DNA of 64,000 nucleotides, taken from contig JAILFK010000008.1 in NCBI GenBank assembly GCA_024697595.1, forward strand, positions 23,972 to 87,971. Reading direction: 5' to 3'. The DNA is from Lachnospiraceae bacterium (GTDB lineage Bacteria; Bacillota; Clostridia; Lachnospirales; Lachnospiraceae). A program made the translations under genes and the position numbers. Shown here piece after piece: positions 12,140 to 37,497 of this stretch. The stretch's first letter is position 1, and each line of letters opens with the position of its first letter. The notes beneath the pieces are model-generated. The model saw only the letters and a list, made by a program, of their open reading frames with translations. It had not been told where the DNA came from and made no database searches.

Positions 12140-13060
12140 TCACGCCTCAATCGGCGTCCAATTATCCATATATAAATCGCATGGCACATCTATACCATAC
12201 CACTTAGATGGAGTTATAACTATTTTATCTTCATTCTCAGATAAATACTGCGCCCACCATCCAAATGAAGTATTTCCAATTATAAAATGCTTACATTGAG
12301 CCATAACTCCCAGTGATATCTGAACTGGAAAATCTCTGCTTTGCATCACGCATTCATATTTATCAGCGTCTATAAAATGTTCTAACACATAAGGCACATT
12401 ATCTGAACAAATAAAAAATACTGGATTTTCCACATTGTCTGTAATGTACTTGATTGCCTTTTCCCAATACTCTCTTGTACACACATCATACATCTCGCTT
12501 CCCACATTATGTTCCACTTTGATGCTTATGCATACCGAGTTACTATTTTGAATTTTTTCCAAACCAGGATATCCCGACTGATTCACCTTGTCTTTTATGG
12601 AAAATATTTCTCGAATCTCTTTTTGATTTTCTTCAAAATATTTTGGCGACTGAAAGAATCCACTCATATAGACATCTTTATCAACACTATCAGGCAATGG
12701 AATATATCCATTTTCACATCTTATCAATCCTTGCTCTAAAAACTTCTCTCTATGTCTCAATTCATAATCATATCTAGAACGAAAACTACTATATAACCTA
12801 GTGCCTATGTGTCTGTGATTAAATATTGCCATTTCAGCTTTACGCAAATTTGCTTTTTTCAACACACTTCTATCATCCACATAAGAACTAACTCCAGGAA
12901 GCTCATAATAAGGTAGTGAATCTTCCCAATTTAACTTTTTCACTCTACTATCATCAATAACTATCTCAGGATGATCCGGACTATTTAATTGTAAAGTTCT
13001 TGCAGCAGCGTACATGAAAATCTGATTTCCAATTCTGCCCTCTAACTCTAGATATATCAT
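12140..13060 (-). CDS. GT11-like glycosyltransferase (alpha-1,2-fucosyltransferase family) with a non-canonical motif I
   Basis: N-terminal EGRIGNQIFMYAAAR and C-terminal FIIGNTSFGWWAQYL match GT11 hallmarks. The expected HxRRGD motif is replaced by CISIKVEHNV. Confidence 0.65.
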   Translation of the reverse strand: MIYLELEGRIGNQIFMYAAARTLQLNSPDHPEIVIDDSRVKKLNWEDSLPYYELPGVSSYVDDRSVLKKANLRKAEMAIFNHRHIGTRLYSSFRSRYDYELRHREKFLEQGLIRCENGYIPLPDSVDKDVYMSGFFQSPKYFEENQKEIREIFSIKDKVNQSGYPGLEKIQNSNSVCISIKVEHNVGSEMYDVCTREYWEKAIKYITDNVENPVFFICSDNVPYVLEHFIDADKYECVMQSRDFPVQISLGVMAQCKHFIIGNTSFGWWAQYLSENEDKIVITPSKWYGIDVPCDLYMDNWTPIEA

Positions 13061-16517: not shown

Positions 16518-17239
16518 TATAATTCCTCCTTCTTACGAACCCATTGTAAGAACAATGTATTAAACACAACAGTCATCATATACTTGGTAGAATTCCACAT
16601 ATTTAAATAACTAGTCCCAAACATTCTCTCATCCATCTCAACCTGAACTTCCTCAACTTTGGCACCACAACCAATCATATATGCCAGAGTATCTGGTTCT
16701 GGAGTATAAGCCATATCGTATCCCACAAGTTTTATCATACGTTTGTTGTACATTCTAAGCCCTGATGTAGGGTCTGTAATCGTTTTGCCGGTCTTTAACT
16801 TAATAACAGAAGTTATAAGACGACTTCCAATCATACGAGCACTGTGATCTTTTTTTTGTTCACAAAACCTTGAACCAATTACAATGTCAGCCGCTGTAGA
16901 TTTCATTTTTTCAAGCATTGGAGCAATCGATTCTGCTCTGTGCTGACCATCGCCATCAAACTGAACTACATAATCATACCCCTTGGCATTAGCATATCTG
17001 ACACCACAACGAAAGGCTCCCGCAAGACCTGTATTTATTGGCATATCCAGGTAATTATATCCTCGTCTTGCAGCGATTTTTCTAGTGTCATCACTACTTC
17101 CATCATTAATGATTACATAATCATACTCAGAATAATTTTCTATTAAATTATCAACTACTCTCTCAATATTTTCAGCTTCATTGTAAGCTGGAATTATAAG
17201 CAAAGTATCACTCATACATTTCTGCCTTTCATTTTTCAT
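16517..17239 (-). CDS. GT2 polyprenol-phosphate sugar synthase (GacI/DPM1-like, soluble type)
   Basis: LLIIPAYNEAENIERVVDNL...IINDGSSDDT...VQFDGDGQH. The true start may be ATG 17215 (MSDTLLII). Confidence 0.82.
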   Translation of the reverse strand: MKNERQKCMSDTLLIIPAYNEAENIERVVDNLIENYSEYDYVIINDGSSDDTRKIAARRGYNYLDMPINTGLAGAFRCGVRYANAKGYDYVVQFDGDGQHRAESIAPMLEKMKSTAADIVIGSRFCEQKKDHSARMIGSRLITSVIKLKTGKTITDPTSGLRMYNKRMIKLVGYDMAYTPEPDTLAYMIGCGAKVEEVQVEMDERMFGTSYLNMWNSTKYMMTVVFNTLFLQWVRKKEEL

Positions 17240-19067
17240 CTTCCGTTTTCAAAGCTTCGTTTTTTGTAAAACACAAAACTAAGAGCAACGGCAATATAAG
17301 TTGCTGTGCAAAGCCGTAACGTGGCCAATACCAAATAGGTGATGCTATTATCAATGTCATCATTAACCCAAGGGCTGGCGCAAGCATTATAAATCTCTTC
17401 CAATCACCTCGCAAAAGTGCAAAGATTGCCAAAGCAATAATCAACCAATGCATATAAGAAACCGGTATATCTCTCGCTGTGTGTGGAAACATTTTCGCTG
17501 CGGTAGAGTCATCTTCAACATTTTTTAATTCTATACCCTCTACTCCTAAAGGATAGGCTCTGTTTACACCAATATTTCTCGGAACTCCACCATCTATATT
17601 GGCTTCGAAGGTATTAACACACTTTTGATTAATTGCCCAAAAGCCAAAGGTTTGCAATTCCCACGCTTCTATACATATCTTAGGATTCTTTTTCGCAATA
17701 GAAATGTATTTATTAATAAAATTATCTTCTAATACAGCTTTATTAAACAGCGGATTCCATTTCAAATTATCTACACAACAAGGAGTATATGTTTCATCAT
17801 AATCATCTATAGGATAAATAGCATTCATATATGCAATTTCTTCATCACTTAAATCACCATTACAAACCACTACTCTTGCCATTTGATTTAAAAAAATGCC
17901 ATAACTCTCCACCTTGGTATCGCTTTTATCCACGCCCCAGCTATCATACACAGGTCCTGTGACATAATTTGAAATAATAACTATCGATGCACATACACAG
18001 ATGCATCTAGCTATATTCCACGCTTTTTCCTTTTTTAAGAAAAAATAAATAAACGCAATTATCATTATGATAATAACTGCAAGAACAATATAAATACCGT
18101 TATTCCTACTAAATATTACCAAAAAACTTGTCGCTATTAATTTCAAATATGACCATATTTTTTGTAGCACTGAATCGTATTTTCCATAAATAGCATCAAA
18201 AAAACAAATTGTAAACACAATAACCGAAACAGAAAAAATTGGATCCTTCCATATTGCTATTGAATATTGCGCCACATATGTTGATGCTCCAAAACAAAGT
18301 ACTGTAAGATAATATATCCATTTATTTATTGTAAATTTAAATCTAACCCAATTTAAGAAATAACTAACACCGATTGCCATAAAAACAGTTTGGCAAAAGC
18401 TAAAAATAGCTAATCCCTGTGTTATTCCGCCTATTTTAAAGCCTAAATTTAAGCAAATACGCAAAAACAATATATACATCACTGGATGATGATTTGTAAG
18501 CGTAGCTAAACCTAATGCTTCGATAACATTACTTGAAGTATCACCAAAATAAAATCCCGGATAATATACATATAAATATGGTAGCCACATCAACATCATA
18601 ATAATAGTAGCAATTACAACACTCTTAATGGATACTCTTTTCGAAATATCAAATTCAACAAGCTTCCCATTATATTTTTCTCGTAATAAAATAATACTTT
18701 TTACAATAGCACATATAAAATAAGCGATACCACAAATTGCAATAATATCCGCAAAACAATATGCACTTATGTAATTTGCAGTATGGGTTCCCGCATAAAT
18801 ATTACTTATATCTATCTGTATATGTTTTCCTGCAACGATAACAACCGACAATATTACTGAAAATACCACAGTCGCCACTAAATCATTCTTATTTTTTATC
18901 TCGTATGAATATGCATATAACTTAATTTGTAAAAAATCTATGAAAAATCCCAAGACAATTCCAACCAAAAGCCAACTGCTAATATTCATATAATATGTAA
19001 ACACTAACGTCGTTACATATATTAATACTCTTTTTAAAATCTCTATCGTTTTAGCCTTACTTGCCAT
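17229..19067 (-). CDS. Large polytopic membrane protein, possible GT-C-type glycosyltransferase (family unassigned)
   Basis: 612 aa with more than 12 TM helices and a C-terminal extracytoplasmic domain of about 150 aa. Located downstream of DUF2142 and upstream of the GT2/DUF2304 pair. Confidence 0.4.
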   Translation of the reverse strand: MASKAKTIEILKRVLIYVTTLVFTYYMNISSWLLVGIVLGFFIDFLQIKLYAYSYEIKNKNDLVATVVFSVILSVVIVAGKHIQIDISNIYAGTHTANYISAYCFADIIAICGIAYFICAIVKSIILLREKYNGKLVEFDISKRVSIKSVVIATIIMMLMWLPYLYVYYPGFYFGDTSSNVIEALGLATLTNHHPVMYILFLRICLNLGFKIGGITQGLAIFSFCQTVFMAIGVSYFLNWVRFKFTINKWIYYLTVLCFGASTYVAQYSIAIWKDPIFSVSVIVFTICFFDAIYGKYDSVLQKIWSYLKLIATSFLVIFSRNNGIYIVLAVIIIMIIAFIYFFLKKEKAWNIARCICVCASIVIISNYVTGPVYDSWGVDKSDTKVESYGIFLNQMARVVVCNGDLSDEEIAYMNAIYPIDDYDETYTPCCVDNLKWNPLFNKAVLEDNFINKYISIAKKNPKICIEAWELQTFGFWAINQKCVNTFEANIDGGVPRNIGVNRAYPLGVEGIELKNVEDDSTAAKMFPHTARDIPVSYMHWLIIALAIFALLRGDWKRFIMLAPALGLMMTLIIASPIWYWPRYGFAQQLILPLLLVLCFTKNEALKTEDEK

Positions 19068-19097
19068 AAATATAAACTTCCTTTTCGCAACATCCTA

Positions 19098-20663
19098 TCA
19101 TCTGCTAATAATTGTCACGTACACATGATATATGGATAAATACTGTAAAATATATAATCCAGCATATATATATTTTGTCACATTTTGTTTCATTACAATA
19201 AAATTATTCTTTAGCAAAATAACTAAAAACGGTAGCATAGGTAAAAAATATCTACCTTGTACACCGGCAACATAATACTGTCCAAGTGGAGTCCAATCGA
19301 TTAACAACGCATAAAAAATCATACATGTTATAACTCCAATAACACCTACAGCCCAGAATCTTTGGAATGGTGAAAGCACTTTGTCTTCTTCCTCATTTTT
19401 TATGACAGACAAAACTATCAACACTACAAATCCATATATTATATATCCTGGAACCATAATTTCAAGCCAGCCTAGATATTGCCCCAACATAGTTTCTATA
19501 TAATATGTGCCTTGTGAAATAATCGTTCCATAAACTACTTCAACTATCTGGTAAGGATTATGCAATAAATAACCCAAACTATATGTCGCCTGTTCCGTCA
19601 ACATACTACTTGACCCTGACCCAACAGACACAACAGTCTGAAACCTCGTCAATAAAATAATTGCCGCACCACCACTCAGGCTCAAAAACATTCCTAATAT
19701 TTTATGAAGTTTATTTTTAAACTTACTCGCTGGAATCATGAATAGCATCAGTGCCAAAACCAAATATACTATTTTCCCAGGCGCTATCAGTGCAAATAAC
19801 ACAAATAATATTAATATATGTTTCCAAGTGACTTCATTCGCATCAAATATCAAATACATTAATATTCCAAAATACAAAAATGCCAATGTCAATACATTCG
19901 AATCATATGACATGGAACACACTTGTTGTAATGTCATAGGTAGCAATGCAACAACCATCAATAATTCTTTTCCGATTGGTGCTAGTTTTATCGCCCAATA
20001 AACTAAAACAATAAAAAATGCTAAAGCAAACCATCTGCCCCATAATAACATTTGAATATTGCCTAAATTAAATAATCTTGCAAGTGTCACTCCTATTATC
20101 TGAGGTATATAAGCTAGAGCCGACACGTTCTGTGGTGCTCTGGACATTGAAACAACGCCCTCGCTGTGATCCATATTTCCAAAATTATGAAACATTAATG
20201 AATACGACCTTGCATTTGGTAAATGTTGGTCATTATGCTCGTAAAGTGAATCATCCTCTCTATACAGCACAGCGCCATTTTCATCCACGGTTTGTTCACC
20301 TAATAATTTACTGGAATAATTATATACTGTATCCACATGTACCGCTTCGTCCGGTGATGTAAATGGTGGCAATAACAAGGAATATATGATTCCAAAAAAT
20401 ATTCCTAAACACAAAAACACTTTTTCTGCCTTCCATTTGCTAATACCAAAATATAAACACAGAAAACCTATCAACAAAACTGCGAATAGAATCACTGTCA
20501 TTGGTTTCAAAAAATGTAATTCAGCATTTACCATTAACGGATTTACCGTATCATGAATAGTCCTAACTAAGGTCAACAATATAATCGCGCTAATTGAAGC
20601 AACTATTAGACATTTATATTTATTATTTTTTATATAATCATAAGCCTTATATATAATCGACAT
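19098..20663 (-). CDS. DUF2142-like polytopic membrane protein (putative GT-C glycosyltransferase, GacL-like role)
   Basis: 521 aa and multi-TM. The first outside loop carries SPDEAVHVD, the acidic PDE..H motif I associate with DUF2142. Confidence 0.55.
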   Translation of the reverse strand: MSIIYKAYDYIKNNKYKCLIVASISAIILLTLVRTIHDTVNPLMVNAELHFLKPMTVILFAVLLIGFLCLYFGISKWKAEKVFLCLGIFFGIIYSLLLPPFTSPDEAVHVDTVYNYSSKLLGEQTVDENGAVLYREDDSLYEHNDQHLPNARSYSLMFHNFGNMDHSEGVVSMSRAPQNVSALAYIPQIIGVTLARLFNLGNIQMLLWGRWFALAFFIVLVYWAIKLAPIGKELLMVVALLPMTLQQVCSMSYDSNVLTLAFLYFGILMYLIFDANEVTWKHILILFVLFALIAPGKIVYLVLALMLFMIPASKFKNKLHKILGMFLSLSGGAAIILLTRFQTVVSVGSGSSSMLTEQATYSLGYLLHNPYQIVEVVYGTIISQGTYYIETMLGQYLGWLEIMVPGYIIYGFVVLIVLSVIKNEEEDKVLSPFQRFWAVGVIGVITCMIFYALLIDWTPLGQYYVAGVQGRYFLPMLPFLVILLKNNFIVMKQNVTKYIYAGLYILQYLSIYHVYVTIISR

Positions 20664-20664
20664 T

Positions 20665-22767
20665 CTATTTTGCTACTCTTCCTTCACTCTTCCCATAATT
20701 TATATAATGCAAGTAATATTGTTTATTATTGTTTCCATATGCATTTCTTAAATCTCCATAATTATTTTTATAGGCATTCAAATTAAAGTCAGATTTAGCC
20801 TGACGGCCTTCATTCATTCCATAATTAACAAAGTGAGCTAGTGTAGCAGCATCATCTGTTCCAAATGCTCTATAAACATCTCTGTTATGCGCCACATAAT
20901 AATCATAATTGTATACCGCAGCATAATTTACGCCATTATATACTGTAGTCGCTCCTACAACCTTGTCTAAATTTTGTGTTGCTGTTCGACCTTCTTTCTT
21001 TCCATAATTAATATAGTGTAAATAATATGCTTTTTTATTATTTCCATATGCATTTCTCAAGTCACTATATGTATTTTTATATGCATTAACATTGAATTCC
21101 GCTTTTGCTTGGCGGCCTTCATTCATTCCATAGTTCACAAAATGCTCTAAAGCCTTTGTATCATTATCTCCAAAAGCCTTTTTTATATCGCTATTATGTG
21201 CAATATAATAATCATAATTATATACCGCACTGTAATTTACTCCATTATATGTTGTCACTCTTCCTTGTACGTTCTTTTCATATCCTATGGCTACTCGACC
21301 TTCTCTTCGTCCATAATTGATATAATGCAAATAATATGCTGGCAAATTATTCCCATAAGCACCACGTAAGTCAGGATATAAATTTTTATATGATATTACA
21401 TTGAAAGTACTAACTGCCTGACGCCCCTCTTTCATGCCATTATTGACAAAATGTCTCAATAGTGCGACGTCATCATCCCCATAAACATTTGCTACATCTT
21501 TATTATGGGCAAGATAATAATGCATATCATACACAGCCGAATAATCAATTCCATTGTATGTAGTTAAGCAGCCCAACATTTTGTTTTCACAACCTGTACC
21601 ATGACGCCCTTCTGCTTTTCCAAAAGTTTTATAATGATTATAATACGATCTCCAATCTTTACCATATTTATGTCGTAAATCTGCATATTCATTTCTATAT
21701 GAAATAGGATTAAATTCTGCGCATCCCTGTCTGCCTTCTGACATTCCGTGTATTCTAAAATGTTGTAGCAACGCTGCAGGCTCGTTTCCCATCGCTTGCA
21801 CTACATCTGGATTATGCTGAGCATAATATCCAGCATCAAATATAGCTGAATAATCTTGTCCGCATATAGTTCCATCATCATACCAATAATCTAAATCTAC
21901 ATATCCTGATATACCACTGATATATCCCTGACTAGAAAATTGCCAGAAATCATATGTTCCACCATAATTGGTATCTCGCCAAGGGTAATCATGATAATAC
22001 TCTCCATCCCCGCCACCTGGCAAATAATAATACTGTGCTACCCATATTTTAAAATGATTAGCCAACGCTGCACCATTAATAATACCATTCAACGTAGCCT
22101 TATTAGCATATACACATGGTGTATAACCATATTGTTGTACTCTCTGGCAAAATGCTGTACATACCGATGTTCTAGAATCCATACTCTGCCCACTATTTTT
22201 TAATCTGCAATTTGACCCAGAGCAAAATTCGTAGTCCAAAACAACTGGCATAGTTATATTGTAATTATAAATCCGACCACATATATAATCAGCTTCTTCA
22301 ATAGCCTCCGCCTCATTTACTGCCTCAGAATAAAAGTACACTCCTGTCTTCAATCCTGCCGCATTCGCGCCGGCTAAATTCTGTCTAAAAAGATCATCCT
22401 CGTATAAATAACCACTATTAGATCTACCACCAACTTTTACAAAAACAAATTCAACTCCTGAATTCTTAACAGCAGTCCAATTAATATCCCCCTGCCAATG
22501 AGATACATCTATGCCTTTTCGAACTGTATGATTCGAATTTCTTGCAGCATTCTTTACCACATTAAATGTAAAATCATCATCAACAGGATCTTCATGAACC
22601 TGCCCTTTGTCAGGTTCTCCCATTCCATAAGCTATCTGGCCTTCATAATTCTTGACCGCCTGAGCATCTGTACCTCTAAGCATAAATACCGTTAGCAGCA
22701 CTGCCATTAACGGCAATATAAATGTTATAACTTTTGTCACTTTCATTTCTTTTATTTTTTCTCGCAT
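20665..22767 (-). CDS. Secreted GH25 muramidase (lysozyme) with four C-terminal ~103-aa repeats
   Basis: Signal/anchor VITFILPLMAVLLTVFML. GH25 motifs GIDVSHWQGDINW, EFVFVKVG, VLDYE and FWQFS. Start set at ATG 22767 (MREKIKEM) because GAGGTGG lies 4 nt upstream and it clears the upstream stop. The track start at 22812 is TTG. Confidence 0.85.
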   Translation of the reverse strand: MREKIKEMKVTKVITFILPLMAVLLTVFMLRGTDAQAVKNYEGQIAYGMGEPDKGQVHEDPVDDDFTFNVVKNAARNSNHTVRKGIDVSHWQGDINWTAVKNSGVEFVFVKVGGRSNSGYLYEDDLFRQNLAGANAAGLKTGVYFYSEAVNEAEAIEEADYICGRIYNYNITMPVVLDYEFCSGSNCRLKNSGQSMDSRTSVCTAFCQRVQQYGYTPCVYANKATLNGIINGAALANHFKIWVAQYYYLPGGGDGEYYHDYPWRDTNYGGTYDFWQFSSQGYISGISGYVDLDYWYDDGTICGQDYSAIFDAGYYAQHNPDVVQAMGNEPAALLQHFRIHGMSEGRQGCAEFNPISYRNEYADLRHKYGKDWRSYYNHYKTFGKAEGRHGTGCENKMLGCLTTYNGIDYSAVYDMHYYLAHNKDVANVYGDDDVALLRHFVNNGMKEGRQAVSTFNVISYKNLYPDLRGAYGNNLPAYYLHYINYGRREGRVAIGYEKNVQGRVTTYNGVNYSAVYNYDYYIAHNSDIKKAFGDNDTKALEHFVNYGMNEGRQAKAEFNVNAYKNTYSDLRNAYGNNKKAYYLHYINYGKKEGRTATQNLDKVVGATTVYNGVNYAAVYNYDYYVAHNRDVYRAFGTDDAATLAHFVNYGMNEGRQAKSDFNLNAYKNNYGDLRNAYGNNNKQYYLHYINYGKSEGRVAK
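20668..21855 (-). repeat. Four tandem ~309-nt coding repeats (unassigned EGR-motif module)
   Basis: Protein units start DYSAIFDAGYY, DYSAVYDMHYY, NYSAVYNYDYY and NYAAVYNYDYY. Each unit ends ...LHYINYGxxEGR. Confidence 0.9.
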
Positions 22768-22780
22768 TATCCACCTCATA

Positions 22781-24472
22781 TTACTGACCGTTTCTTCCCT
22801 CATTTTTCCCAAAATTTATGTAATGTAAGTAATACAATTTTGTATTATCACCATATGCATTTCGCAGGTCTGCATATCTGTTCTTGTACGACTGCACATT
22901 AAACGAAGATTTTGCCTGACGTCCTTCATTCATTCCATAATTCACAAAATGACTTAACGTCGCTATGTCGTCCGTTCCATATGCATTATACACATCTCTA
23001 TTATTTTGCACATAATAATCGTAATCGTATACTGCAGAATAGTTTGCTCCATTATATACTGTTGTAGCACCTACAACCCTATCCTCATACCCAGTTGTTA
23101 TTCTCCCCTCATTTTTTCCATAATTTATGTAATGCAAGTAATACTCTTTCAGATTATTACCATATGCATTTCGCAGGTCTGCATATCTGTTCTTGTACGA
23201 CTGCACATTAAACGAAGATTTAGCTTGACGCCCTTCACTCATTCCATATTTGACAAAATGTTCTAACGCAGCTTGTTTATTTGTACCAAAAGCTTTTTGT
23301 AAATCACCATATTTTGAAATATAATAGTTATAATTATACACTGCTGAATAATCAACTCCACCATATATAGGTTTTACTTCTGGCGCGCTTCCATAATTAT
23401 AATTACATGGTGGTCTATTATATTGGCTCCATAAACTCTCAACTGCATGACTGTCCGCACCGGCAGTTTGTTCGCTAACATTAAAATACTCTTCCCTTTC
23501 ACCGCCTGTATCAGCAAAAGTAACATCTACAAGATACCAATAATCCCCAATTCTAACTTGATTCCACTCATGATTCGAACTTGTAACCACAATGCAGTCT
23601 ATTCCAGCATAGTTACAATATAATTCGAAAGCTTCCGAATAACCAGCACATACACTTACCTTATTTACAATAGCACTATAGCAAGATTGATCATAATCTG
23701 CTGAAGCATAATTTACAGTATCAATCAAATTATTATATGATATAGATTCATTTAAAATTGTCATTTCTTCATCCCATGAACTGGTCTTTTGCAATTCCGA
23801 TGTAACTTTTTCTATTTCATTTTTAAAAGTATTTGTACAGTCTCTTCTATACTCACCATTTGCGAAATCTGGATCTATACCAACAGCAACACTAGCGTCA
23901 CTATAAGCATATGAATCGTCCAAAAAATAAAATTGTGGATTTGCATTTTCAAATATATATGCAACCTCTATAGCCTCTGACGGAGTGATACCAGAAAAAG
24001 GAACTCCGTCACATATAACCCCTGTATCGCCGGTTTCTAGGAGTATATTCATACATTTTGAATACAAAGCATCATACACCGCTTTTTTACTTGCACTCAT
24101 TTGATTATAATAATATCTAGATCCAAATTGATCCCAATAAGAAGAAGTAGCATTATATCTTTTAGAATACGTTCTAAGTTTCCCCTGGTCAGGCTCATCA
24201 AGCACACGAATCTCTGCGCCATAAAATCTCTGTTCCAATTCGTTTGTATATCCTTCTTTTTCAGAATTGGACATAGATTTAAAATCTTCTGCCGTAACTT
24301 CATCTACATTAAATTCATCACCGCAATCAGCACACAATTCTCCTTGATTATATACAACCTCTAACTCGCTCTTTCCACCACCTTCAATTATATGGCCAAA
24401 TGGAAATGCCATCCCTACCATCAGGACAACCACAAAGAATGCACTTAAAATTCTCTTTTTGTTATTTTTCAT
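22781..24472 (-). CDS. Secreted transglutaminase-like (papain-fold Cys-His-Asp) protein with two C-terminal ~103-aa repeats
   Basis: Signal peptide ILSAFFVVVLMVGMAFP. Core is VCAGYSEAFELYCNYAGIDCIVVTSSNHEWNQVRIGDYWYLVDVT (C...H...D spacing of transglutaminase-like domains). The repeats are the same as in the GH25 neighbour. Confidence 0.65.
   Translation of the reverse strand: MKNNKKRILSAFFVVVLMVGMAFPFGHIIEGGGKSELEVVYNQGELCADCGDEFNVDEVTAEDFKSMSNSEKEGYTNELEQRFYGAEIRVLDEPDQGKLRTYSKRYNATSSYWDQFGSRYYYNQMSASKKAVYDALYSKCMNILLETGDTGVICDGVPFSGITPSEAIEVAYIFENANPQFYFLDDSYAYSDASVAVGIDPDFANGEYRRDCTNTFKNEIEKVTSELQKTSSWDEEMTILNESISYNNLIDTVNYASADYDQSCYSAIVNKVSVCAGYSEAFELYCNYAGIDCIVVTSSNHEWNQVRIGDYWYLVDVTFADTGGEREEYFNVSEQTAGADSHAVESLWSQYNRPPCNYNYGSAPEVKPIYGGVDYSAVYNYNYYISKYGDLQKAFGTNKQAALEHFVKYGMSEGRQAKSSFNVQSYKNRYADLRNAYGNNLKEYYLHYINYGKNEGRITTGYEDRVVGATTVYNGANYSAVYDYDYYVQNNRDVYNAYGTDDIATLSHFVNYGMNEGRQAKSSFNVQSYKNRYADLRNAYGDNTKLYYLHYINFGKNEGRNGQ
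22784..23353 (-). repeat. Two tandem ~309-nt coding repeats of the same EGR-motif module
   Basis: 63 nt are identical between the copies (22850-22912 = 23159-23221, offset 309 nt). Confidence 0.92.
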
Positions 24473-24492: not shown

Positions 24493-27054
24493 TTACTTTA
24501 ATTCAAAATGCGAGGAATCTAATGTAAGATTTGGATTATAATAAGGGTCTCCTTTTTCCATCTCTTCACTCCATTTGTTGACAAACTTCTCAATCTCTCC
24601 ATGAAACCTCTTTATTTTTTCTGGATTATCCTCAGCGCCTCGTGATTTTGATTCATAATGATAAAACTCAGCATAAGGATTATATACCACCAACTTATGA
24701 GCTTGATGCAATACTTTCATGCAATAATCTATGTCATTAAACGCAACTTCAAAGCTTTCATCTAAGCCACCTACTTCATCCCACACTTCTCTAGTAGTTA
24801 ATAGACACGCAGCAGTAACTGCTGATAAATCTTGCACTTCCCACGGCCTACATAAATAGCCATCCTCACTTTTATCCAATCCAATAAAAGCATGTCCTGC
24901 AATTCCACCAAAACCAATAATCACACCAGCATGCTGAATTGTGTCGTCAGGATAATACAATTTAGCGCCCACAATACCAACATCTTCACGAATCGCAATA
25001 TCCACCATTTCTTTTATTGCCTCCGGAGCAATTATCTCGGTATCGTTATTCAATAGCAGTATATACTCACCTGTAGCATACTCTACTCCAAAATTATTTA
25101 TTTTAGAGTAATTAAAATTACCATCATAATATACAACTCTAATACTTGGCGTATATTTACTATCAGTAAATTCATTCGCCTCTACGGTCTTTATATAATC
25201 TTCGCCAAGCTCTTTGTAATATTCAAACGTCTCCACTTCAGTACTATTATTTTCAATAATTATAAACTCTAAATTTCGATAAATAGATTTTTTAATTATT
25301 GAATCTATACACTTTTGAAGATCATCTATATGATCCTTATTTGGAATAATCACCGACACTAATGGCTCTTTATCCCAATGATAATACGTTCTATACACAC
25401 ATCTTTCTTGATTATATTCTACAGTAGCTGGAATCCCCACTCTCTTGTAATGAGCTTCAATAGCTTTACAACCACCTGTTATAGCATATGTCTTATTCCC
25501 AATATTTTGCGCCGTCGATTGATTATGCACTCTCCAGTGATACAATACCATCGGAACATGATATATTTCATTAGCAACCTCACACAATCTAAATATCATA
25601 TCGTGATCTTGGGCACCATCATAATCAGATTGAAACTCCCCCGCTTTTTCCAAAAGTGATTTTCGGAAACAAAGCATGTGGCATATATAATTAATAGATC
25701 TAAGTAAATCTATATTGTAATCAGGCTTAAAATGAGGCTCAAAATATTTTTTTGATGATTTGTCAATTTTATCTTCATCTGAATATAAAACATCAACACC
25801 GGGATGTTCATTTATAGCTTTTACAAATTCATACAACGCATTTGGAGAAACCAAATCATCATGATCACAAAGAGCTATAAAATCACCTTTTGCCATTTTT
25901 AGCGCAGCGTTAGTGTTGTCAGCAATCCCCAAATTGCAATCTAATAGTTGATATTTTAATCTATCGTCATCTATAGACTCAACAACCTCCTGAAGTGTAC
26001 AATCTTCACCACTCGTTTTCCCATTATCATCTATTAAAATGCTTCCGTCCGCTAGACATAGTTCCCAATTTGAATATGTCTGTTTTTGAAAGGATTCTAT
26101 TAATTCTTTAAAGAACTTCTCATTGGTTCTATAAAGAGGTATACATATAGAAATCAATGGTTCGTAATCGAAATGTATGCCCTTTTGCTCTTCAAGTTCT
26201 TTATCTGTCACACCATATTTCTTCCTAAAAGCATCATAATCATTTTGCAATCTCATACGCTTAATAGGAATAAACTTTTCTATACATCTTCTAACAGTCC
26301 TTTTAAATCCGTGCTTTTTGTAAAAACGCACTGCTTTATAAAAAATATTTGGTTGCTTCTCCTCAATATATTTGACGCCCTTATTTTTTGTTATTTCAAC
26401 CGATCCGCTCTGGTGCTGTCCTCTAGCTTCAAGTATCATCTTCCCAGCAGTTGCATTACTTATAGATATTATAAATCCACATTTAGAATCTTCGTCTAGT
26501 TCTTTATAAGTATTTACTATATCTCTTCTATACACCCACTTAATATCACAATCAACTCTATCTCCATTAGAGCTCAACGACAACTCAATGTGTTCTCTAG
26601 CTACGCACCATCCAACTATCTTGGTAACGCCTTCATCTTCCTCTATAGTATCAACAATTAGTTGCACTTTATCGCGCAAATCTTTCAACATATCAACAGG
26701 CATATATTTAACTGTATGACCATCTAGCTCGTCATTAGAATTCAATATCTCGTCAATATCTTCGCCTAAATCAACGCTAATAATTCTGACATCATTTATT
26801 CCTTCTAGCCGTTCATCTATAGAAACATAAAAATTATGTTCATCTCCAACATTCATATGTTGTTCCATATATTGCATTCTAATAGAAGGGCCATTAAGCA
26901 CATCATGTTCGCATTTCACATCTTTTCCATTTACTAATATATGAATCTCTTGCCCCTTTGGATCATCATCTGGATATACACCCGTTACAACCAAAGTATT
27001 CTTTTTAACTATATGAAAGTTAACCTTAATTAATTCAAATCTTATTTCTTGCAT
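24493..27054 (-). CDS. Multidomain glycosyltransferase: ~290-aa N-terminal non-GT region plus two GT2 modules
   Basis: GT2 module 1 is ISICIPLYRTNEKFFKELIESFQKQTYSNWELCLADGS...CDHDD. GT2 module 2 is VSVIIPNKDHIDDLQKCIDSIIKKSIYRNLEFIIIENNS...LLNNDTE. Confidence 0.85.
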   Translation of the reverse strand: MQEIRFELIKVNFHIVKKNTLVVTGVYPDDDPKGQEIHILVNGKDVKCEHDVLNGPSIRMQYMEQHMNVGDEHNFYVSIDERLEGINDVRIISVDLGEDIDEILNSNDELDGHTVKYMPVDMLKDLRDKVQLIVDTIEEDEGVTKIVGWCVAREHIELSLSSNGDRVDCDIKWVYRRDIVNTYKELDEDSKCGFIISISNATAGKMILEARGQHQSGSVEITKNKGVKYIEEKQPNIFYKAVRFYKKHGFKRTVRRCIEKFIPIKRMRLQNDYDAFRKKYGVTDKELEEQKGIHFDYEPLISICIPLYRTNEKFFKELIESFQKQTYSNWELCLADGSILIDDNGKTSGEDCTLQEVVESIDDDRLKYQLLDCNLGIADNTNAALKMAKGDFIALCDHDDLVSPNALYEFVKAINEHPGVDVLYSDEDKIDKSSKKYFEPHFKPDYNIDLLRSINYICHMLCFRKSLLEKAGEFQSDYDGAQDHDMIFRLCEVANEIYHVPMVLYHWRVHNQSTAQNIGNKTYAITGGCKAIEAHYKRVGIPATVEYNQERCVYRTYYHWDKEPLVSVIIPNKDHIDDLQKCIDSIIKKSIYRNLEFIIIENNSTEVETFEYYKELGEDYIKTVEANEFTDSKYTPSIRVVYYDGNFNYSKINNFGVEYATGEYILLLNNDTEIIAPEAIKEMVDIAIREDVGIVGAKLYYPDDTIQHAGVIIGFGGIAGHAFIGLDKSEDGYLCRPWEVQDLSAVTAACLLTTREVWDEVGGLDESFEVAFNDIDYCMKVLHQAHKLVVYNPYAEFYHYESKSRGAEDNPEKIKRFHGEIEKFVNKWSEEMEKGDPYYNPNLTLDSSHFELK

Positions 27055-27074
27055 TATTCCTTATCACACCATCT

Positions 27075-28400
27075 TCAACATTTTTCAATTGAAGTTTTTG
27101 AAAACATATCATAAAATCCCACAGTATTTTTATCTGAAATAACCGTTATATTCAATAAATCATATAGGCGATTATATGCTTGAAAATCGCCATCTGAATA
27201 TCCTGTACAGCTAATGGAGAGAAGGTATTCGCCGCCTTGCAGATTCATCACCTGCTCAAAAGTAGCAACATATATATCCCCCTCTTTCACACCACCTGTA
27301 CTGACATCTTCATACATTGTATTAGTTCCAGTAATTGCTGTCCCCTGAATATTTTTAAAAGTGTACGTAAATATAGGATCCTCTAAGTCCTTATTAAATT
27401 TCACCTTTGACTTAATTTTGAACTTTTTACCTTTTTCGAGAGATGTTGTAAAGTTTCCTTTTTCATCTATTACTGCAAAGTCTATAATTTCGGCAGAACC
27501 GTCTCCATAAGGATTTACATTCGGATTTATTTCAAAAGAATCTCTCCACAATCCATTGCCACTATTATCCAAACCAAAAGTGCTTTCAAGACTATTAATA
27601 TCTGAAGTTTCGTCAAACAAATTTTCAGACATAGCTGACAATTCATTTCCTTCATCATCTACTTGATTGACTAATAATTTCTTATATAAATCAATCATGT
27701 CGCTAGGCTTGCCTTCATCCATCTTGCGCCCCTTATTTAGAAGCACCGCTCTATCGCAATACTTTGCAATACTTCCCAAGTCATGACTCACAAACAAAAT
27801 AGTTTTTCCCTGTTCCTTGAACTCTTCAAACTTCTTATAGCACTTATTCTGAAAGAAAACATCTCCTACAGAAAGAGCTTCATCTACAATCAATATTTCC
27901 GGATCAATATTTATAGCCACAGCAAATGCAAGACGCACAAACATTCCGGAAGAATATGTTTTTACTGGTTGATGCACAAAATCGCCAATATCTGCAAATT
28001 TTAAAATGTCATCTAGCTTTGCATCTATTTCAGATTTTGTAAATCCAATCATAGAACCATTCAAATATATATTTTCTATTCCAGTATATTCTTGATTAAA
28101 TCCAGCACCCAATTCAAGTAAAGCAGAAATTCGCCCCTCTATATCAACAGTACCGGATGTTGGATTCAACACACCAGTAATAATCTTTAATATAGTAGAC
28201 TTCCCCGCACCATTAGTTCCTATAATACCAACGCACTCGCCTTTTTTTATGTTAAATGACAACTCGCTCAACGCGTAATGTTCCTTATATAACTTCTTGC
28301 CCTTGCTAAGCCCTAAAGCTTCCTTAAATCTGTCCGAAGGTTTATCATATAATTTATATAACTTCGATACATTATCTACCTTTATTGCATATTCACTCAT
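27075..28400 (-). CDS. wzt: ABC transporter ATP-binding protein Wzt/TagH type with a C-terminal glycan-binding (Wzt_C-like) domain
   Basis: Walker A GTNGAGKST, signature YSSGMFVRLAFA, Walker B ILIVDE. A further ~170-aa beta-rich C-terminal domain follows (AEIIDFAVIDEKGN...KFKIKSKVKF...LLSISCTGY). Confidence 0.9.
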   Translation of the reverse strand: MSEYAIKVDNVSKLYKLYDKPSDRFKEALGLSKGKKLYKEHYALSELSFNIKKGECVGIIGTNGAGKSTILKIITGVLNPTSGTVDIEGRISALLELGAGFNQEYTGIENIYLNGSMIGFTKSEIDAKLDDILKFADIGDFVHQPVKTYSSGMFVRLAFAVAINIDPEILIVDEALSVGDVFFQNKCYKKFEEFKEQGKTILFVSHDLGSIAKYCDRAVLLNKGRKMDEGKPSDMIDLYKKLLVNQVDDEGNELSAMSENLFDETSDINSLESTFGLDNSGNGLWRDSFEINPNVNPYGDGSAEIIDFAVIDEKGNFTTSLEKGKKFKIKSKVKFNKDLEDPIFTYTFKNIQGTAITGTNTMYEDVSTGGVKEGDIYVATFEQVMNLQGGEYLLSISCTGYSDGDFQAYNRLYDLLNITVISDKNTVGFYDMFSKTSIEKC

Positions 28401-28418
28401 ATCTATTATCCATCTTTC

Positions 28419-29849
28419 TTACAATACATCTGCAAAATGTATCTTTAATTTTCTAAACACTGTTGTTCCAATTATATATATAACAATTGTCACAATCCAA
28501 AAATATAAAGTCAATTCCGGCTTTTCCCAAAACCATATTTCATTTAGTAATGCATCCCTATATCCCGATACAATATAAAACATCGGATTCAATTTCAATA
28601 TCTTCAATACAATTGGTGAAATATTCGTCATAGTATTAATGTTCCACATTATTGGAGTTGCCCAAATACCAATCTGTAACAATATATTCACAATCTGTCC
28701 TAAGTCTCTAAAAAATACCATCATTGCACTTGTTGCATAAACCAATCCCACGCACAAAATCATCATCGCGAGCGAATAATATACTATCTGTAACATATAT
28801 GGATTTAACTCATATCCATAAACAGCATAGAAAACCAACATAAATGCAATAAAAAATATATGTACAAACAAGCTAGAAATAAGCTTTACAACTGGTAAAA
28901 TCGAAATATTGAAAACCACTTTTTTAACGAGATAACTATACTCGATCAACGTATTGGTAGCCATGTTGATTGCTTCCGAAAAATAAAACCATGGAACAAG
29001 TCCAGCTATCAACCAAATTACATATGGCGCATTAATTCCAGATTTTGTTGCTTGCGCTCCTGCACTTAACGCCTTTTCGAAAACGAACCAATATACTATA
29101 ACTGTAACAATTGGCTGCACAAAAGCCCACACTATGCCTAAATACGATCCAGCAAATCTACTTTTAAAATCATTTTTTGCAAGACTTAATGTAAGTTTCT
29201 TATTATGTAATATCTCTAGAGGAATCTCCATAAATGACTGACGCTTAATATAGATAAGTAGTAATAACGTAACAACAACTGCAATGCACGCTATCTTTTT
29301 TATCGCATTAGACTTATAATCTGCATCTCTCACAGCTTGTATGCATTTATCTGCATTACAATTCCATACCAAATACGAATCATCTCCTGTAAGAACTGAT
29401 ATAACGCCATTTTTTTCATTTATTTTCTTTACATCATTTGTAGAAACAATATCGTCTAATTTAAAATTGCTTTCAACGACCTTGCCTTTGTACTCAAGAT
29501 AAATATTAGAAATCTCTATATTTTTCCCCGGTTCACCTGATGGGTCAATTCTAAGCGCCCTTGTAGTGGCCGGAATTTCTACAATAAGCTCCTTTTCTTT
29601 ATCTATATCATTTTTACTATATTCAATTGACACAGATCTATCTACGCTAAAGCCTTGCTTCTCATCAAAAACACCTTCATCATCTTGCTGCATAAAAAAA
29701 GTTTCTACAACAGTTGTATCTTCCGTCTCAACAGTCAAATGCAATGAAACATATAAGTCACCATCACTTTTCTGATAAGTCCAAATACCATATATTGCTA
29801 GTATTATTAATATAAGTGTGCACACAAGTGCAATAACTCTTTTCTTCAT
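28419..29849 (-). CDS. wzm: ABC-2 (Wzm/TagG) permease fused to a ~200-aa N-terminal TM-ectodomain-TM extension
   Basis: Residues ~215-476 are a canonical ABC-2 permease (LAKNDFKSRFAGSYLGIVWAFVQP...). Residues 1-200 consist of a TM helix, a ~160-aa soluble segment and a second TM helix. Confidence 0.85.
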   Translation of the reverse strand: MKKRVIALVCTLILIILAIYGIWTYQKSDGDLYVSLHLTVETEDTTVVETFFMQQDDEGVFDEKQGFSVDRSVSIEYSKNDIDKEKELIVEIPATTRALRIDPSGEPGKNIEISNIYLEYKGKVVESNFKLDDIVSTNDVKKINEKNGVISVLTGDDSYLVWNCNADKCIQAVRDADYKSNAIKKIACIAVVVTLLLLIYIKRQSFMEIPLEILHNKKLTLSLAKNDFKSRFAGSYLGIVWAFVQPIVTVIVYWFVFEKALSAGAQATKSGINAPYVIWLIAGLVPWFYFSEAINMATNTLIEYSYLVKKVVFNISILPVVKLISSLFVHIFFIAFMLVFYAVYGYELNPYMLQIVYYSLAMMILCVGLVYATSAMMVFFRDLGQIVNILLQIGIWATPIMWNINTMTNISPIVLKILKLNPMFYIVSGYRDALLNEIWFWEKPELTLYFWIVTIVIYIIGTTVFRKLKIHFADVL

Positions 29850-29901
29850 CTATATTTCGCTCCTATTTTAGGGCAATATTAAAAAGCCCATTATCTGATA
29901 A

Positions 29902-29930
29902 ATTATATCACACAATGAGCTTTATGTTAA
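29902..29930 (-). promoter_or_regulatory. Putative sigma-A promoter for the wzm-wzt operon
   Basis: On the minus strand: TTAACA, 17 nt, TATAAT, with TGA immediately upstream (extended -10). About 50 nt upstream of the wzm ATG, with an AGGAG RBS. Confidence 0.5.
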
Positions 29931-29981
29931 CCTGCACATAATATTATTAAGAAAGAAAAACGTACCTTTTTTCTTCACAAA

Positions 29982-31916
29982 TCAATCTTTTTTTATAAAC
30001 TTTCTATATATATTTCGTATTTTAGATATTATTTTCCATGATTTACTGCCATATATTGTCTGAATTTCATTCTCTAACAAATATATTCTAGTCTCTTTCT
30101 CTGCTAAAACATTATCAACCCCTCTATTCTTATCAAGGTAATAATTCTCTAAAATACCATCTCTATCATATTTAGTATCTTTTATACGAAAACGAATTGT
30201 AACTTCATCCACATCACTCTCAGGAATAACGCTATAAGCTGCAGGGCCTTTAACAAACATTGTATACACACCACAGCCACAATTTTCATACATTGGAGTC
30301 ATCCTTTTCACTCCTTTTGTAGCTACAATTTCAATTGCATCATATATATCTTGTAGCAAATCAACTCTTATCACATCATCTTTAATATCAATTATTCTAA
30401 AAGTTATCTCATATAACTCATCGCCTAATAACGTTGCCTCTTTATACATTCTCTTGTTTTCGTCAAAAGACTCCGCTTCACTCTTTTTCCAATATATCTT
30501 TGAAATAATTCTTTTTCCAGGGCCTTTTAACCATCTCAAATCATTTAATGACAAAATGTCCTTGGCATAAATCACATCTGTCGTTTCACCCGCACCCACG
30601 TATTTTTTTGTAAAATATGCATTCCACTCTTCATATACCTGGACATCACTTGCACTTATTTTATATTTATCTAATAAATATTCTTCTTTCAAAAAATTCT
30701 GCATAGCATGATATCTATTATACAATTCATTTATTGCTCGCCAAAAGACAAAATCTACAGGAACAGCAAAATCAAAGATCCATTCGCCGTCTATTATCAA
30801 TACATTGTCGCGAAAACACTTCTTTTTGTCATCCTTGACAAATATATTATCAAATATCATATCAATATTGGGCATTTCTAAACATCTCATGTTTTCTCTA
30901 TTTAAAACCGCATCCCCAAAAACTCTTTTAAACTCATCTATATAATAATCACTTTTAACACTTTGTTCCATTAAATATGTATAAAATCCATCAATAATAT
31001 TAATAAATTCATCTTTATCTTTTTCAATATAATATCTATACAACATTCCATTAATATTATTATTATATAAATATTGATACTCTATTTTCATTTCAGAAAG
31101 CTCTTTTCCAACCAGCAGATCATTGCTTTGCATTTTTGAAAATCCAACCATCTTAGTAATATGATCAACCGCTTTATCGGACTCAGCCTCCTTTATAACA
31201 GTTCTTTTTTCGCCATCGTTAATTATACTCGTAGAAATTTTATACTCATCTTTACGGTCAACAGAATATTTAGTATATTCTTTATATATTTTTTTAGGAT
31301 TTATTTCTATTAGAAATGAATTAGCAAAATATTGCAGCACCTCATTATTCGCAAGTTCTTGAAACACCTTTTCTTCATTAAACAATTCATATCTTCTTGA
31401 GACTTTATTGCACACTTCTTTTCCATAACAAGAATTATTTACATTAACGTCCGAGAATATCTCTATTGGATTTACGTGTTCAGGATATGGATAATAAAAC
31501 CTATACTCAACGTCCAATACATTAAGCATTTCTATCCATTCTCTTCTAGAAAAGGTATACTTGTTTGCAACATCAGGATAATCTTGAACACCCTCGAAAT
31601 ATATATTAGACTCTTCCTCTGGAGCACCTGCAAAAAAGCGCAATCCTAGTCTGTTGTAGCAATTTATCAAAACATGTCCATCTTGTTTTAGTAGCGATAA
31701 ACACTCTTTCAATACCGCAATCGGTTCTTCAACAAATTTATAATCCATCATAACAATTACATCGTAAGAACCACTTTCATATGTTTTCAAATCTTTATCA
31801 TCAAATAAATATATATAATCTCCTGTAAGATCATACCATTTCTCAACCCATCGTCTTCTATTCTTTTGCATATTCATATTATCACCTATTTTTTCACTCT
31901 GCGGATTCACCTTCAT
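29982..31916 (-). CDS. WbdD-like chain-terminator candidate: vestigial class-I methyltransferase, kinase-like domain and C-terminal coiled coil
   Basis: YDVIVMMDY...PIAVLKECLSLLKQDGHVLI (methyltransferase motifs II/post-II, with no glycine-rich motif I). Kinase-like elements are RTVIKEA, IFDNIFV and LIIDGEWIFDF. The C-terminus is LAEKETRIYLLENEIQTIYGSKSWKI. The start overlaps the upstream stop (TAATG). Confidence 0.5.
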   Translation of the reverse strand: MKVNPQSEKIGDNMNMQKNRRRWVEKWYDLTGDYIYLFDDKDLKTYESGSYDVIVMMDYKFVEEPIAVLKECLSLLKQDGHVLINCYNRLGLRFFAGAPEEESNIYFEGVQDYPDVANKYTFSRREWIEMLNVLDVEYRFYYPYPEHVNPIEIFSDVNVNNSCYGKEVCNKVSRRYELFNEEKVFQELANNEVLQYFANSFLIEINPKKIYKEYTKYSVDRKDEYKISTSIINDGEKRTVIKEAESDKAVDHITKMVGFSKMQSNDLLVGKELSEMKIEYQYLYNNNINGMLYRYYIEKDKDEFINIIDGFYTYLMEQSVKSDYYIDEFKRVFGDAVLNRENMRCLEMPNIDMIFDNIFVKDDKKKCFRDNVLIIDGEWIFDFAVPVDFVFWRAINELYNRYHAMQNFLKEEYLLDKYKISASDVQVYEEWNAYFTKKYVGAGETTDVIYAKDILSLNDLRWLKGPGKRIISKIYWKKSEAESFDENKRMYKEATLLGDELYEITFRIIDIKDDVIRVDLLQDIYDAIEIVATKGVKRMTPMYENCGCGVYTMFVKGPAAYSVIPESDVDEVTIRFRIKDTKYDRDGILENYYLDKNRGVDNVLAEKETRIYLLENEIQTIYGSKSWKIISKIRNIYRKFIKKD

Positions 31917-37462: not shown

Positions 37463-37497
37463 AATTTTATTTTGTAAAATTCTGATTAATCCATCCA
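37463..37497 (-). repeat. Copy 2 of the ~36-nt direct repeat, overlapping the last codons of the hydrolase gene
   Basis: See 35902-35938. Confidence 0.7.

Follow-up and report, generated by a model that had tools for sequence, protein, structure and literature searches.

The stretch of DNA analysed here, called the window below, comprises 64,000 nucleotides from a Lachnospiraceae bacterium (GenBank assembly GCA_024697595.1, contig JAILFK010000008.1, positions 23,972 to 87,971) and consists almost wholly of glycopolymer genes. Two adjacent genes within it, for a glycoside hydrolase family 25 (GH25) muramidase and a transglutaminase-like (TglA-like) putative secreted protein, both end in tandem copies of a 103-aa unit, whose nature and probable function are the subject of this analysis. 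The features of the gene pair are listed with window coordinates, (-) denoting the reverse strand.

20665..22767 (-): GH25 muramidase gene, 700 aa from M16 (Pfam, public annotation, ribosome-binding site)
22657..22767 (-): predicted GH25 signal peptide MREKIKEMKVTKVITFILPLMAVLLTVFMLRGTDAQA (hydrophobic segment and n-h-c layout with AQA)
21910..22512 (-): GH25 catalytic domain, residues 101-301 (Pfam Glyco_hydro_25 and PHROG)
21604..21912 (-): repeat unit G1, residues 301-403, the most divergent unit (profile and alignment)
21295..21603 (-): repeat unit G2, residues 404-506 (profile and alignment)
20986..21294 (-): repeat unit G3, residues 507-609, the unit chosen for modelling (profile and alignment; AlphaFold)
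20677..20985 (-): repeat unit G4, residues 610-712 (profile and alignment)
22781..24472 (-): transglutaminase-like (TglA-like) putative secreted protein gene, 563 aa, K6B67_00870 (open reading frame, Pfam, NCBIfam, 100% match to P0271)
24395..24472 (-): N-terminal signal or anchor segment of the transglutaminase-like protein MKNNKKRILSAFFVVVLMVGMAFPFG (hydrophobic segment, model helix)
23507..24130 (-): TglA-like papain/transglutaminase-fold domain, residues ~115-322, with Cys275, His301 and Asp316 (Foldseek and phmmer to 9crn)
23102..23410 (-): repeat unit T1, residues 355-457 (profile and alignment; full-length model)
22793..23101 (-): repeat unit T2, residues 458-560 (profile and alignment; full-length model)
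22850..22912 = 23159-23221 (no strand assigned): 63-nt tract of exact identity in the second half-motif of T2 and T1

The mechanical open reading frame (ORF) of the GH25 gene covers 20665-22812 (-) and opens with a TTG codon at 22812. The true start is likely M16 (numbering of the mechanical ORF) at 22767, because this codon is preceded by a GAGGTGG ribosome-binding site, 13 nt past the upstream stop, and because the public annotation of the same contig (K6B67_00865, P0304) gives a protein of 700 aa. The profile Glyco_hydro_25 (PF01183) was matched over its full length (1-180) with E 7e-36 and 124.6 bits against a gathering cut-off of 27, and PHROG endolysin families matched the same domain with E 2e-43. 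Judged from these profile matches, the catalytic part of the protein belongs to GH25.

For the second gene, the match to Transglut_core (PF01841) was sub-threshold (E 3e-4, 21.3 bits versus a cut-off of 23), and the NCBIfam model for a transglutaminase-related lipoprotein gave a partial, far-sub-threshold match (2.6e-16). The N-terminal domain matched Streptococcus pyogenes TglA (PDB 9crn) both in fold (Foldseek E 3e-10 over 277 columns) and in sequence (phmmer E 6.6e-7); the context of the Cys/His/Asp motif is also common to the two, and Cys275, His301 and Asp316 are invariant across 43 homologues. Identity to TglA is, however, 22%, and 9crn aligns to the catalytic part alone, with the repeat region unmatched. 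A literature search found no functional paper on S. pyogenes TglA, and the 9crn structure is apparently unpublished. From the sequence and the model, the catalytic part resembles TglA as a relative and is predicted to be a transglutaminase-like, papain-fold cysteine enzyme, with peptidoglycan stem peptides as a possible substrate. The combination of a transglutaminase-like protein with these repeats is common (more than 40 homologues), and such proteins often close the arrays of repeat genes.

Both N-termini are hydrophobic. A hydropathy scan placed the segment at residues 22-40 of the GH25 protein, where an n-h-c layout with AQA was recognised by eye, and at residues 5-23 of the transglutaminase-like protein, whose full-length model shows a helix at 4-20 followed by a disordered stretch. 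These N-termini are consistent with the export signals that a preliminary description of this DNA, made from the letters of the sequence, had ascribed to both proteins.

The same description had noticed four units of about 103 aa in the GH25 protein and two in its neighbour, each composed of two related half-motifs, and alignment bore this out. The C-terminal units are in register, with pairwise identities of 40-75%, and each consists of a lead of ~19 aa and two related half-motifs of 42 aa; the 12 half-motifs align without a gap and share eight invariant columns (Y, D, G, H, G, E, G, R). The family consensus reads ..YnGvdYs.VYdy.YY...y.D...afG.dd...l.HFv..GM.EGRqa...F.v..Y...Y.DLr.afG.dl..YY.HYi..G..EGR, and among 1,600 unique units 22 of 94 positions are conserved to at least 90%, many of them as Tyr, His, Asp, Glu or Arg. 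The repeat regions have an isoelectric point (pI) of 8.1-8.8 and contain 13-16% Tyr and 11-12% Asn, the catalytic parts having a pI of 4.3-5.4. Within the window, the repeat is restricted to these two ORFs.

The 63-nt identity between the two units of the transglutaminase-like gene was exact, as described. Along T1 and T2, the tract holding this match is 90% identical at the nucleotide level and the rest of the unit 61%, whereas in all other unit pairs third-position identity is about 0.5 and exact runs do not exceed 20 nt. We conclude that localised gene conversion has acted on an otherwise old duplication, in keeping with the gene-conversion reading offered earlier. G4 is closest to T2 of the neighbouring gene, with 75% aa identity. 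An orthologous gene pair in a metagenome-assembled genome (MAG) from water-deer rumen (L048), which is collinear with the window at 70-75% nucleotide identity, has 3+3 units versus 2+4 here, so that the copy number of the repeat is evolutionarily labile. This suggests gain and loss of units and, possibly, their exchange between the two neighbouring genes.

Structure prediction of unit G3 with AlphaFold2, from an alignment of 125 sequences, gave a confident model (predicted local distance difference test (pLDDT) 91.4, predicted template modelling score (pTM) 0.82), in which a short β-hairpin is followed, twice, by the succession helix-helix-long helix. In the full-length model of the transglutaminase-like protein, T1 and T2 both reached a pLDDT of at least 92. 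The 103-aa unit is thus confidently predicted as a hairpin plus two three-helix half-motifs, a compact fold that is all-helical apart from the hairpin. Foldseek comparison of the unit model with the PDB revealed no fold neighbour (best E 5.7), and with the full-length model the PDB matches fell on the N-terminal domain alone, leaving the repeat part uncovered.

Searches for a known family were likewise negative. Pfam, applied to both whole proteins (E ≤ 1) and to isolated units and halves (E ≤ 10), gave nothing significant on the repeat; at these thresholds for whole proteins and isolated units, neither SLH (PF00395) nor CWB2 (PF04122) was matched. No match was found to the choline-binding repeat CW_binding_1 (PF01473), an aromatic repeat of ~20 aa, the period here being 103/42 aa and the predicted structure helical. 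LysM, SH3b, PG_binding_1, CW_7, GW, SPOR, ChW and Bsp-like modules showed no Pfam, PDB-sequence or PDB-fold match to the repeat. NCBIfam and PHROGs scans yielded no match covering it, PDB sequences gave nothing below E 0.5 with the unit and half profiles, and precomputed Pfam lists of more than 100 full-length homologues named catalytic domains alone, the repeat being unlisted. In the literature, no description of the repeat was found, literal motif strings included. The following leads were discarded: DUF1217, a recurrent weak match (E 0.0021-0.024) below the gathering score, was taken as noise; TraO, a phage lysin cell-wall-binding domain and GnT-IV, from the PDB sequence profiles, were chance matches at E ≥ 0.5; and a goat-gut paper on a "cell wall-modifying enzyme" (PMC5146660) concerns PG_binding_1 and not this repeat.

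To determine the extent of the family, a hidden Markov model (HMM) of the six units, the check proposed in the preliminary description, was searched exhaustively against 1.84 billion cluster representatives. It matched 13,638 of them at E ≤ 1e-3, 7,038 at E ≤ 1e-10 and 1,355 at E ≤ 1e-30, so that the repeat is not a chance pattern. In a separate homologue search with the 103-aa profile, the matches were fragments of 180 aa or less and were used just as alignment input. By sequence, the repeat belongs to a domain family that is very large and has no name. Its earlier classification as unassigned therefore stood across Pfam, NCBIfam, PHROGs, PDB sequences, PDB folds and the literature search; of the new wall-glycopolymer anchoring module proposed then as a candidate, the module is new, whereas the concept of such anchoring is known from AtlA/Bsp and EpaU.

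Among 50 sampled top matches, the partner domains were Amidase_3 (9), Glucosaminidase (9), GH25 (7), DUF5722 (5), NlpC/P60 (3), Transglut_core (3), M23, C1 peptidase and lectin-like domains (two each) and YkuD, CAP, GH5, α-L-rhamnosidase and subtilase (one each). This pattern, rich in peptidoglycan hydrolases, recurs in more than 100 homologues, and repeat arrays in related loci add GH9 cellulase, C1-lectin proteins and amidase-glucosaminidase fusions. In a set of 75 loci from species-representative genomes, local HMM searches detected 158 repeat ORFs. The repeats are C-terminal in 112 of these, mostly in 3-4 copies; 42 of the loci contain two or more repeat genes, and one genome encodes at least 11 different repeat proteins. 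The module is thus carried by many different exoenzymes and by many paralogs per genome. By analogy with CWB2, SLH or choline-binding repeats, this profile of partner domains, paralogs and arrays is the signature of a general surface-display anchor.

Most carriers are Lachnospiraceae (Roseburia, Lachnobacterium, Butyrivibrio, Pseudobutyrivibrio, Eubacterium and Wujia). Six loci lie outside this family, in three Saccharibacteria MAGs, an Eggerthellaceae member, Collinsella and a Ruminococcaceae isolate. The Saccharibacteria MAGs (L033, L057, L058) encode proteins of ~620-650 aa with three C-terminal units, beside rml and Wzm/Wzt genes, and the N-terminal ~330 aa of these proteins are without a Pfam match; this arrangement suggests that repeat and polymer locus were transferred across phyla, or kept, in episymbiotic bacteria of the candidate phyla radiation. 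An apparent planctomycete carrier, "Thermoguttaceae bacterium LCP21S3_D1" (JBQKHF01; L009, L024, L038), was set aside as a probable taxonomic mislabel or contamination, because L009 is 92-98% identical to a Roseburia amylophila locus (L007) and the GC content of L009, L024 and L038 is 35-42%. In a phage collection searched by blastn and tblastn, one unannotated faecal "Bacteriophage sp." record contained the repeat; a single record gives no evidence for the module as a typical cell-wall-binding domain of phage endolysins.

As had been described, the gene pair is wedged between glycopolymer loci: Wzm/Wzt and glycosyltransferase (GT) genes flank it to one side, whereas DUF2142 and DUF6020, again with GT genes, are its neighbours to the other. 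The neighbouring features are the following.

24493..31916 (-): ABC-exporter glycopolymer block adjoining the pair, candidate ligand source (domain searches; homologues recur beside repeat arrays)
24493-27054 (-): double GT2, in the adjoining block
27075-28400 (-): Wzt with Wzt_C domain, in the adjoining block
28419-29849 (-): Wzm, in the adjoining block
29982-31916 (-): soluble 644-aa methyltransferase-like protein (unk644), in the adjoining block
19098-20663 (-): DUF2142 polytopic membrane protein, directly downstream of the pair
17229-19067 (-): DUF6020 polytopic membrane protein, downstream of the pair

A GT2-GT4 fusion also belongs to the upstream block with the double GT2, Wzt and Wzm. 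Further genes of the window specify an LCP ligase, a UDP-glucose pyrophosphorylase, a flippase of the Wzx type, GT2, GT4, GT6 and GT11 enzymes and an acetyltransferase. There is also a second Wzm/Wzt set, which is accompanied by RmlA, two RmlC proteins, an RmlB-like dehydratase, Glf, DUF4422, Bac_transf and another DUF2142 protein. Since the LCP ligase, the rml genes, Glf and two Wzm/Wzt sets occur together in the window, a wall-linked rhamnose/galactofuranose polysaccharide is plausible.

To assess whether this neighbourhood recurs, the window proteins were searched against the ORFs of the 75 repeat loci, strict markers being counted within 8 kb. A strict marker (a homologue of Wzm, RmlA/C, Bac_transf or DUF2142) lay no more than 8 kb from a repeat gene in 37 of 75 loci, and some glycopolymer-type gene was present in 51. 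All six loci from outside the Lachnospiraceae have glycopolymer genes beside the repeat gene. The recurrent co-directional order is RmlC-Wzm-Wzt-unk644-GT2x2, followed by repeat-gene arrays. Loci of the rml/Wzm/Wzt type are estimated to occupy a few percent of a genome; against this background, glycopolymer markers near ~50% of the loci represent a strong enrichment.

Three observations concern proteins of this neighbourhood. The protein unk644, which has no Pfam match, shows an N-terminus like that of S-adenosylmethionine (SAM) methyltransferases by eye, and in 10 of 75 loci its homologues directly follow Wzt and immediately precede arrays of repeat genes; considered together with the Wzt_C domain of the neighbouring Wzt, unk644 looks like a chain terminator of the WbdD type for an ABC-dependent polysaccharide. 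Wzm is unusually long (476 aa), with an N-terminal transmembrane segment and an extra soluble region of ~160 aa before ABC2_membrane (221-434). Two DUF2142 proteins and one DUF6020 protein are encoded within 17229-20663 and 55304-57142 (-), and DUF2142 occurs beside repeat genes in six loci; these proteins may be extracytoplasmic glycopolymer-modifying enzymes.

Taking these results together, the 103-aa unit is probably the module by which Lachnospiraceae and a number of other Gram-positives from gut and rumen anchor exported enzymes non-covalently to the wall, with the polysaccharide of the flanking genes as its likeliest ligand. A role as wall anchor, suggested before, is well supported by architecture and synteny, namely by hydrolase partners, C-terminal arrays, paralogs and recurrent gene neighbourhood. 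Binding of the polymer of the neighbouring locus, for which synteny and the precedents of AtlA/Bsp and EpaU argue, is plausible. In the mechanism that we propose, the GH25 and transglutaminase-like proteins would leave the cell through Sec, their arrays of 2-7 units, rich in Tyr and Asn and mildly basic, would bind a wall component multivalently, and the acidic catalytic domains (the GH25 muramidase and the TglA-like Cys-His-Asp enzyme) would thereby be held on the producer's own wall. A rhamnose-type polysaccharide, exported by Wzm/Wzt, attached by LCP and encoded by the flanking genes, would be the likeliest ligand because of the linkage of the repeat to rml/Wzm/Wzt loci and the presence of an LCP ligase.

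The best functional analogue is AtlA of Streptococcus mutans, in which Bsp repeats are combined with GH25 and bind the polyrhamnose backbone, as determined experimentally; streptococcal Bsp autolysin genes lie just downstream of rhamnose-polysaccharide loci (10.1101/2020.06.26.173716). AtlA and related streptococcal autolysins with Bsp-like repeats (PF08481) share with the GH25 protein described here the combination of GH25 with tandem repeats and a rhamnose-polysaccharide locus next door, but the repeats have no sequence relationship, are N-terminal in AtlA and C-terminal here, and the repeat of the window is predicted to be all-helical. Enterococcus faecalis EpaU (AtlE), composed of GH25 and C-terminal OB-like repeats and encoded in the epa locus, binds the teichoic-acid-like decorations of that locus in a strain-specific manner (PMC13343894). 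It agrees with the present protein in being a GH25 autolysin with C-terminal repeats within a wall-polysaccharide locus, and differs in its OB-like repeats, the repeat here being predicted as helical and without a PDB fold neighbour.

Among other systems, CWB2 (PF04122) with PSII in Clostridioides difficile, SLH (PF00395) with pyruvylated secondary cell wall polymer and choline-binding repeats (PF01473) with teichoic acid are multi-copy modules that display many exoenzymes non-covalently and occur in many paralogs. The present repeat shows the same pattern of partner domains and paralogs, but no Pfam match to any of the three and a different predicted fold.

Several points weigh against the role as a wall anchor for the neighbouring polymer. 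The repeats are just mildly basic, which does not point to an anionic polymer bound electrostatically, and the signal peptides were judged only by eye and by hydropathy scan. The synteny enrichment depends on a background estimated from general knowledge; many of the loci are from related Lachnospiraceae, where part of the synteny may be inherited and shared ancestry inflates the count, and about half of the loci are without a strict glycopolymer marker within 8 kb. Finally, the presence of the half-motif in giant GTs without export context, in methyltransferases and in RTX exoproteins, as detailed below, means that it is not inherently a wall anchor of Gram-positives; it could be a spacer.

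A first alternative is that the repeat binds peptidoglycan itself, as do LysM, SH3b, CW_7 and PG_binding_1, its position in these loci reflecting a general clustering of envelope genes. The dominance of peptidoglycan hydrolases among the partners fits this alternative, as does the range of carriers: peptidoglycan is common to all the phyla concerned, whereas their secondary polymers probably differ. CW_7 (PF08230, from the Cpl-7 lysin) and PG_binding_1 (PF01471) are small three-helix modules, and CW_7 forms tandem repeats of ~42-48 aa after GH25; the half-motif of the window, a predicted three-helix element of ~42 aa that also follows GH25, resembles them in size. Yet there was no hmmscan match to either at E ≤ 10 and no Foldseek PDB match at E ≤ 5, the conserved motif is different, and no sequence or fold likeness to other known peptidoglycan-binding modules was found. 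Some fragments join the repeat with LysM or PG_binding_1, which can be counted for peptidoglycan binding, although such a combination in the same protein hints at a non-redundant ligand for the repeat. As the rml/Wzm/Wzt synteny is, moreover, strong and crosses phyla, we regard peptidoglycan as an unlikely ligand. Cargo such as GH9, GH5, rhamnosidase, subtilase and C1-lectin proteins fits a generic anchor equally well with a polymer or a peptidoglycan ligand.

The half-motif was also detected outside Gram-positive exoenzymes. Matches of the unit model in BFVD (Foldseek) were giant-virus proteins with GT2/GT1, FkbM methyltransferase or sugar-nucleotide reductase domains, at 27-46% identity. A tblastn search of the window's two units against plasmids returned matches with E from 1e-4 to 1e-19. 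These comprised RTX "calcium-binding" proteins and M10 metallopeptidases of Azospirillum, Sphingobium and Trichormus on the one side, and "glycosyltransferase" proteins of Escherichia coli, Acuticoccus, Roseovarius and Allorhizobium on the other. One protein, P0253, contains 19 tandem half-motifs after RTX repeats, and its repeats also match a class I SAM-dependent methyltransferase of Azospirillum argentinense; in the Acuticoccus GT, the half-motif is N-terminal. The E. coli carrier, encoded on plasmid pKTa005_1 (NZ_CP147085, WP_341857793; L076 4910-10273), is a protein of 1,787 aa whose gene comes right after rfbA-rfbC-GT2-ABC permease-ATPase, and it is laid out as Sulfotransfer_2, coiled coil, half-motifs (564-779), WbsX, GT2 and GT1. 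By its domain content, it resembles a terminator-ruler-polymerase from an ABC-dependent pathway. The plasmid itself is an IncF conjugative plasmid with an rfbA-rfbC-GT2-Wzm-Wzt cluster and cysD nearby, and possibly encodes a plasmid-borne sulfated polysaccharide.

These carriers belong to unnamed repeats of the form FDxxxYLxxNPDVxxAGxDPxxHYxxxGxxEGR, found in GTs, methyltransferases and RTX proteins of proteobacteria, cyanobacteria and giant viruses. Their homology to the half-motif is detectable by tblastn, by HMM and by Foldseek against BFVD, but they are single motifs of ~35-40 aa, as opposed to the 103-aa unit of hairpin and double motif, and the GT and methyltransferase carriers are without export context; the repeats of the window are likewise unnamed. 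Speculatively, the half-motif might define an ancient superfamily of glycan-chain-binding elements with a new fold, tied to ABC-dependent polysaccharide systems of the Wzm/Wzt, rml type. In the giant terminator-ruler-polymerase GTs of proteobacteria and giant viruses, its intracellular task would be to retain the chain as it grows. Outside the cell, in the duplicated form of the 103-aa unit, it would bind the completed polymer and so fasten to it the wall hydrolases and exoenzymes of Lachnospiraceae, Saccharibacteria and Coriobacteriia; in RTX exoproteins, it would attach the protein to the surface polysaccharide of Gram-negatives. We consider so broad a proposal doubtful.

A second alternative for the 103-aa unit also draws on these proteins: the repeat could be mainly a rigid helical spacer, stalk or oligomerisation module without a specific ligand, projecting catalytic domains through the wall or setting distances, as beside the coiled-coil rulers of GTs in ABC pathways. 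In the GT of the E. coli plasmid, the half-motifs follow directly after the coiled coil, between the terminating sulfotransferase and the polymerising GT domains, and the 19 tandem half-motifs behind the RTX repeats of P0253, together with the differing copy number of the orthologous pairs (2+4 in the window versus 3+3 in L048), would suit such a device. The polar and aromatic conservation over the 1,600 unique units is, however, very high for a spacer, and the profile of partner domains matches that of known anchors. Furthermore, the repeats end the polypeptide after the catalytic domain, which is the wrong place for a spacer unless the protein is anchored otherwise, and no sortase signal, lipobox or other anchor signal was seen in either protein. 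A pure spacer is, in our estimate, quite improbable. That the repeat is instead an adhesin or binds carbohydrates from outside, for example those of plant fibre or host mucin, is very improbable: some members carry GH9, GH5, α-L-rhamnosidase or lectin domains and the carriers are gut and rumen organisms, but most of the cargo acts on the bacterium's own peptidoglycan and the loci that contain the genes serve the biosynthesis of the cell envelope and not the utilisation of polysaccharides.

Two further observations relate to the window at large. In the block with the Wzx flippase, genes for a GT6 (blood-group A/B-transferase-like) and a GT11 (α-1,2-fucosyltransferase-like) enzyme lie near each other (9673-10533 and 12140-13060, (-)); judged by these families, the bacterium could display a glycan epitope like that of host blood groups. 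Between the two glycopolymer blocks, genes for a choloylglycine (bile-salt) hydrolase (37486-38475), TspO/MBR (35326-35802) and a flavin reductase-rubredoxin fusion (34633-35256) are found, all (-), the bile-salt hydrolase gene being consistent with a gut habitat.

Roseburia, Butyrivibrio, Eubacterium and other Lachnospiraceae rank with the most abundant bacteria of gut and rumen, and the way in which they display enzymes at their surface is largely unknown. If the 103-aa unit is their main non-covalent anchor, a module with more than 13,000 clusters would fill this annotation gap, and the family merits a Pfam/InterPro entry. The tie of the half-motif to giant polysaccharide GTs in Gram-negatives and giant viruses suggests that a glycan-handling motif of wider distribution has gone unrecognised. 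If wall anchoring by the unit is true, a surface-display tag would become available, as well as a repeat-GFP probe for wall polysaccharides comparable to AtlA-GFP in streptococci, and it would be explained how the autolysins of Lachnospiraceae are targeted.

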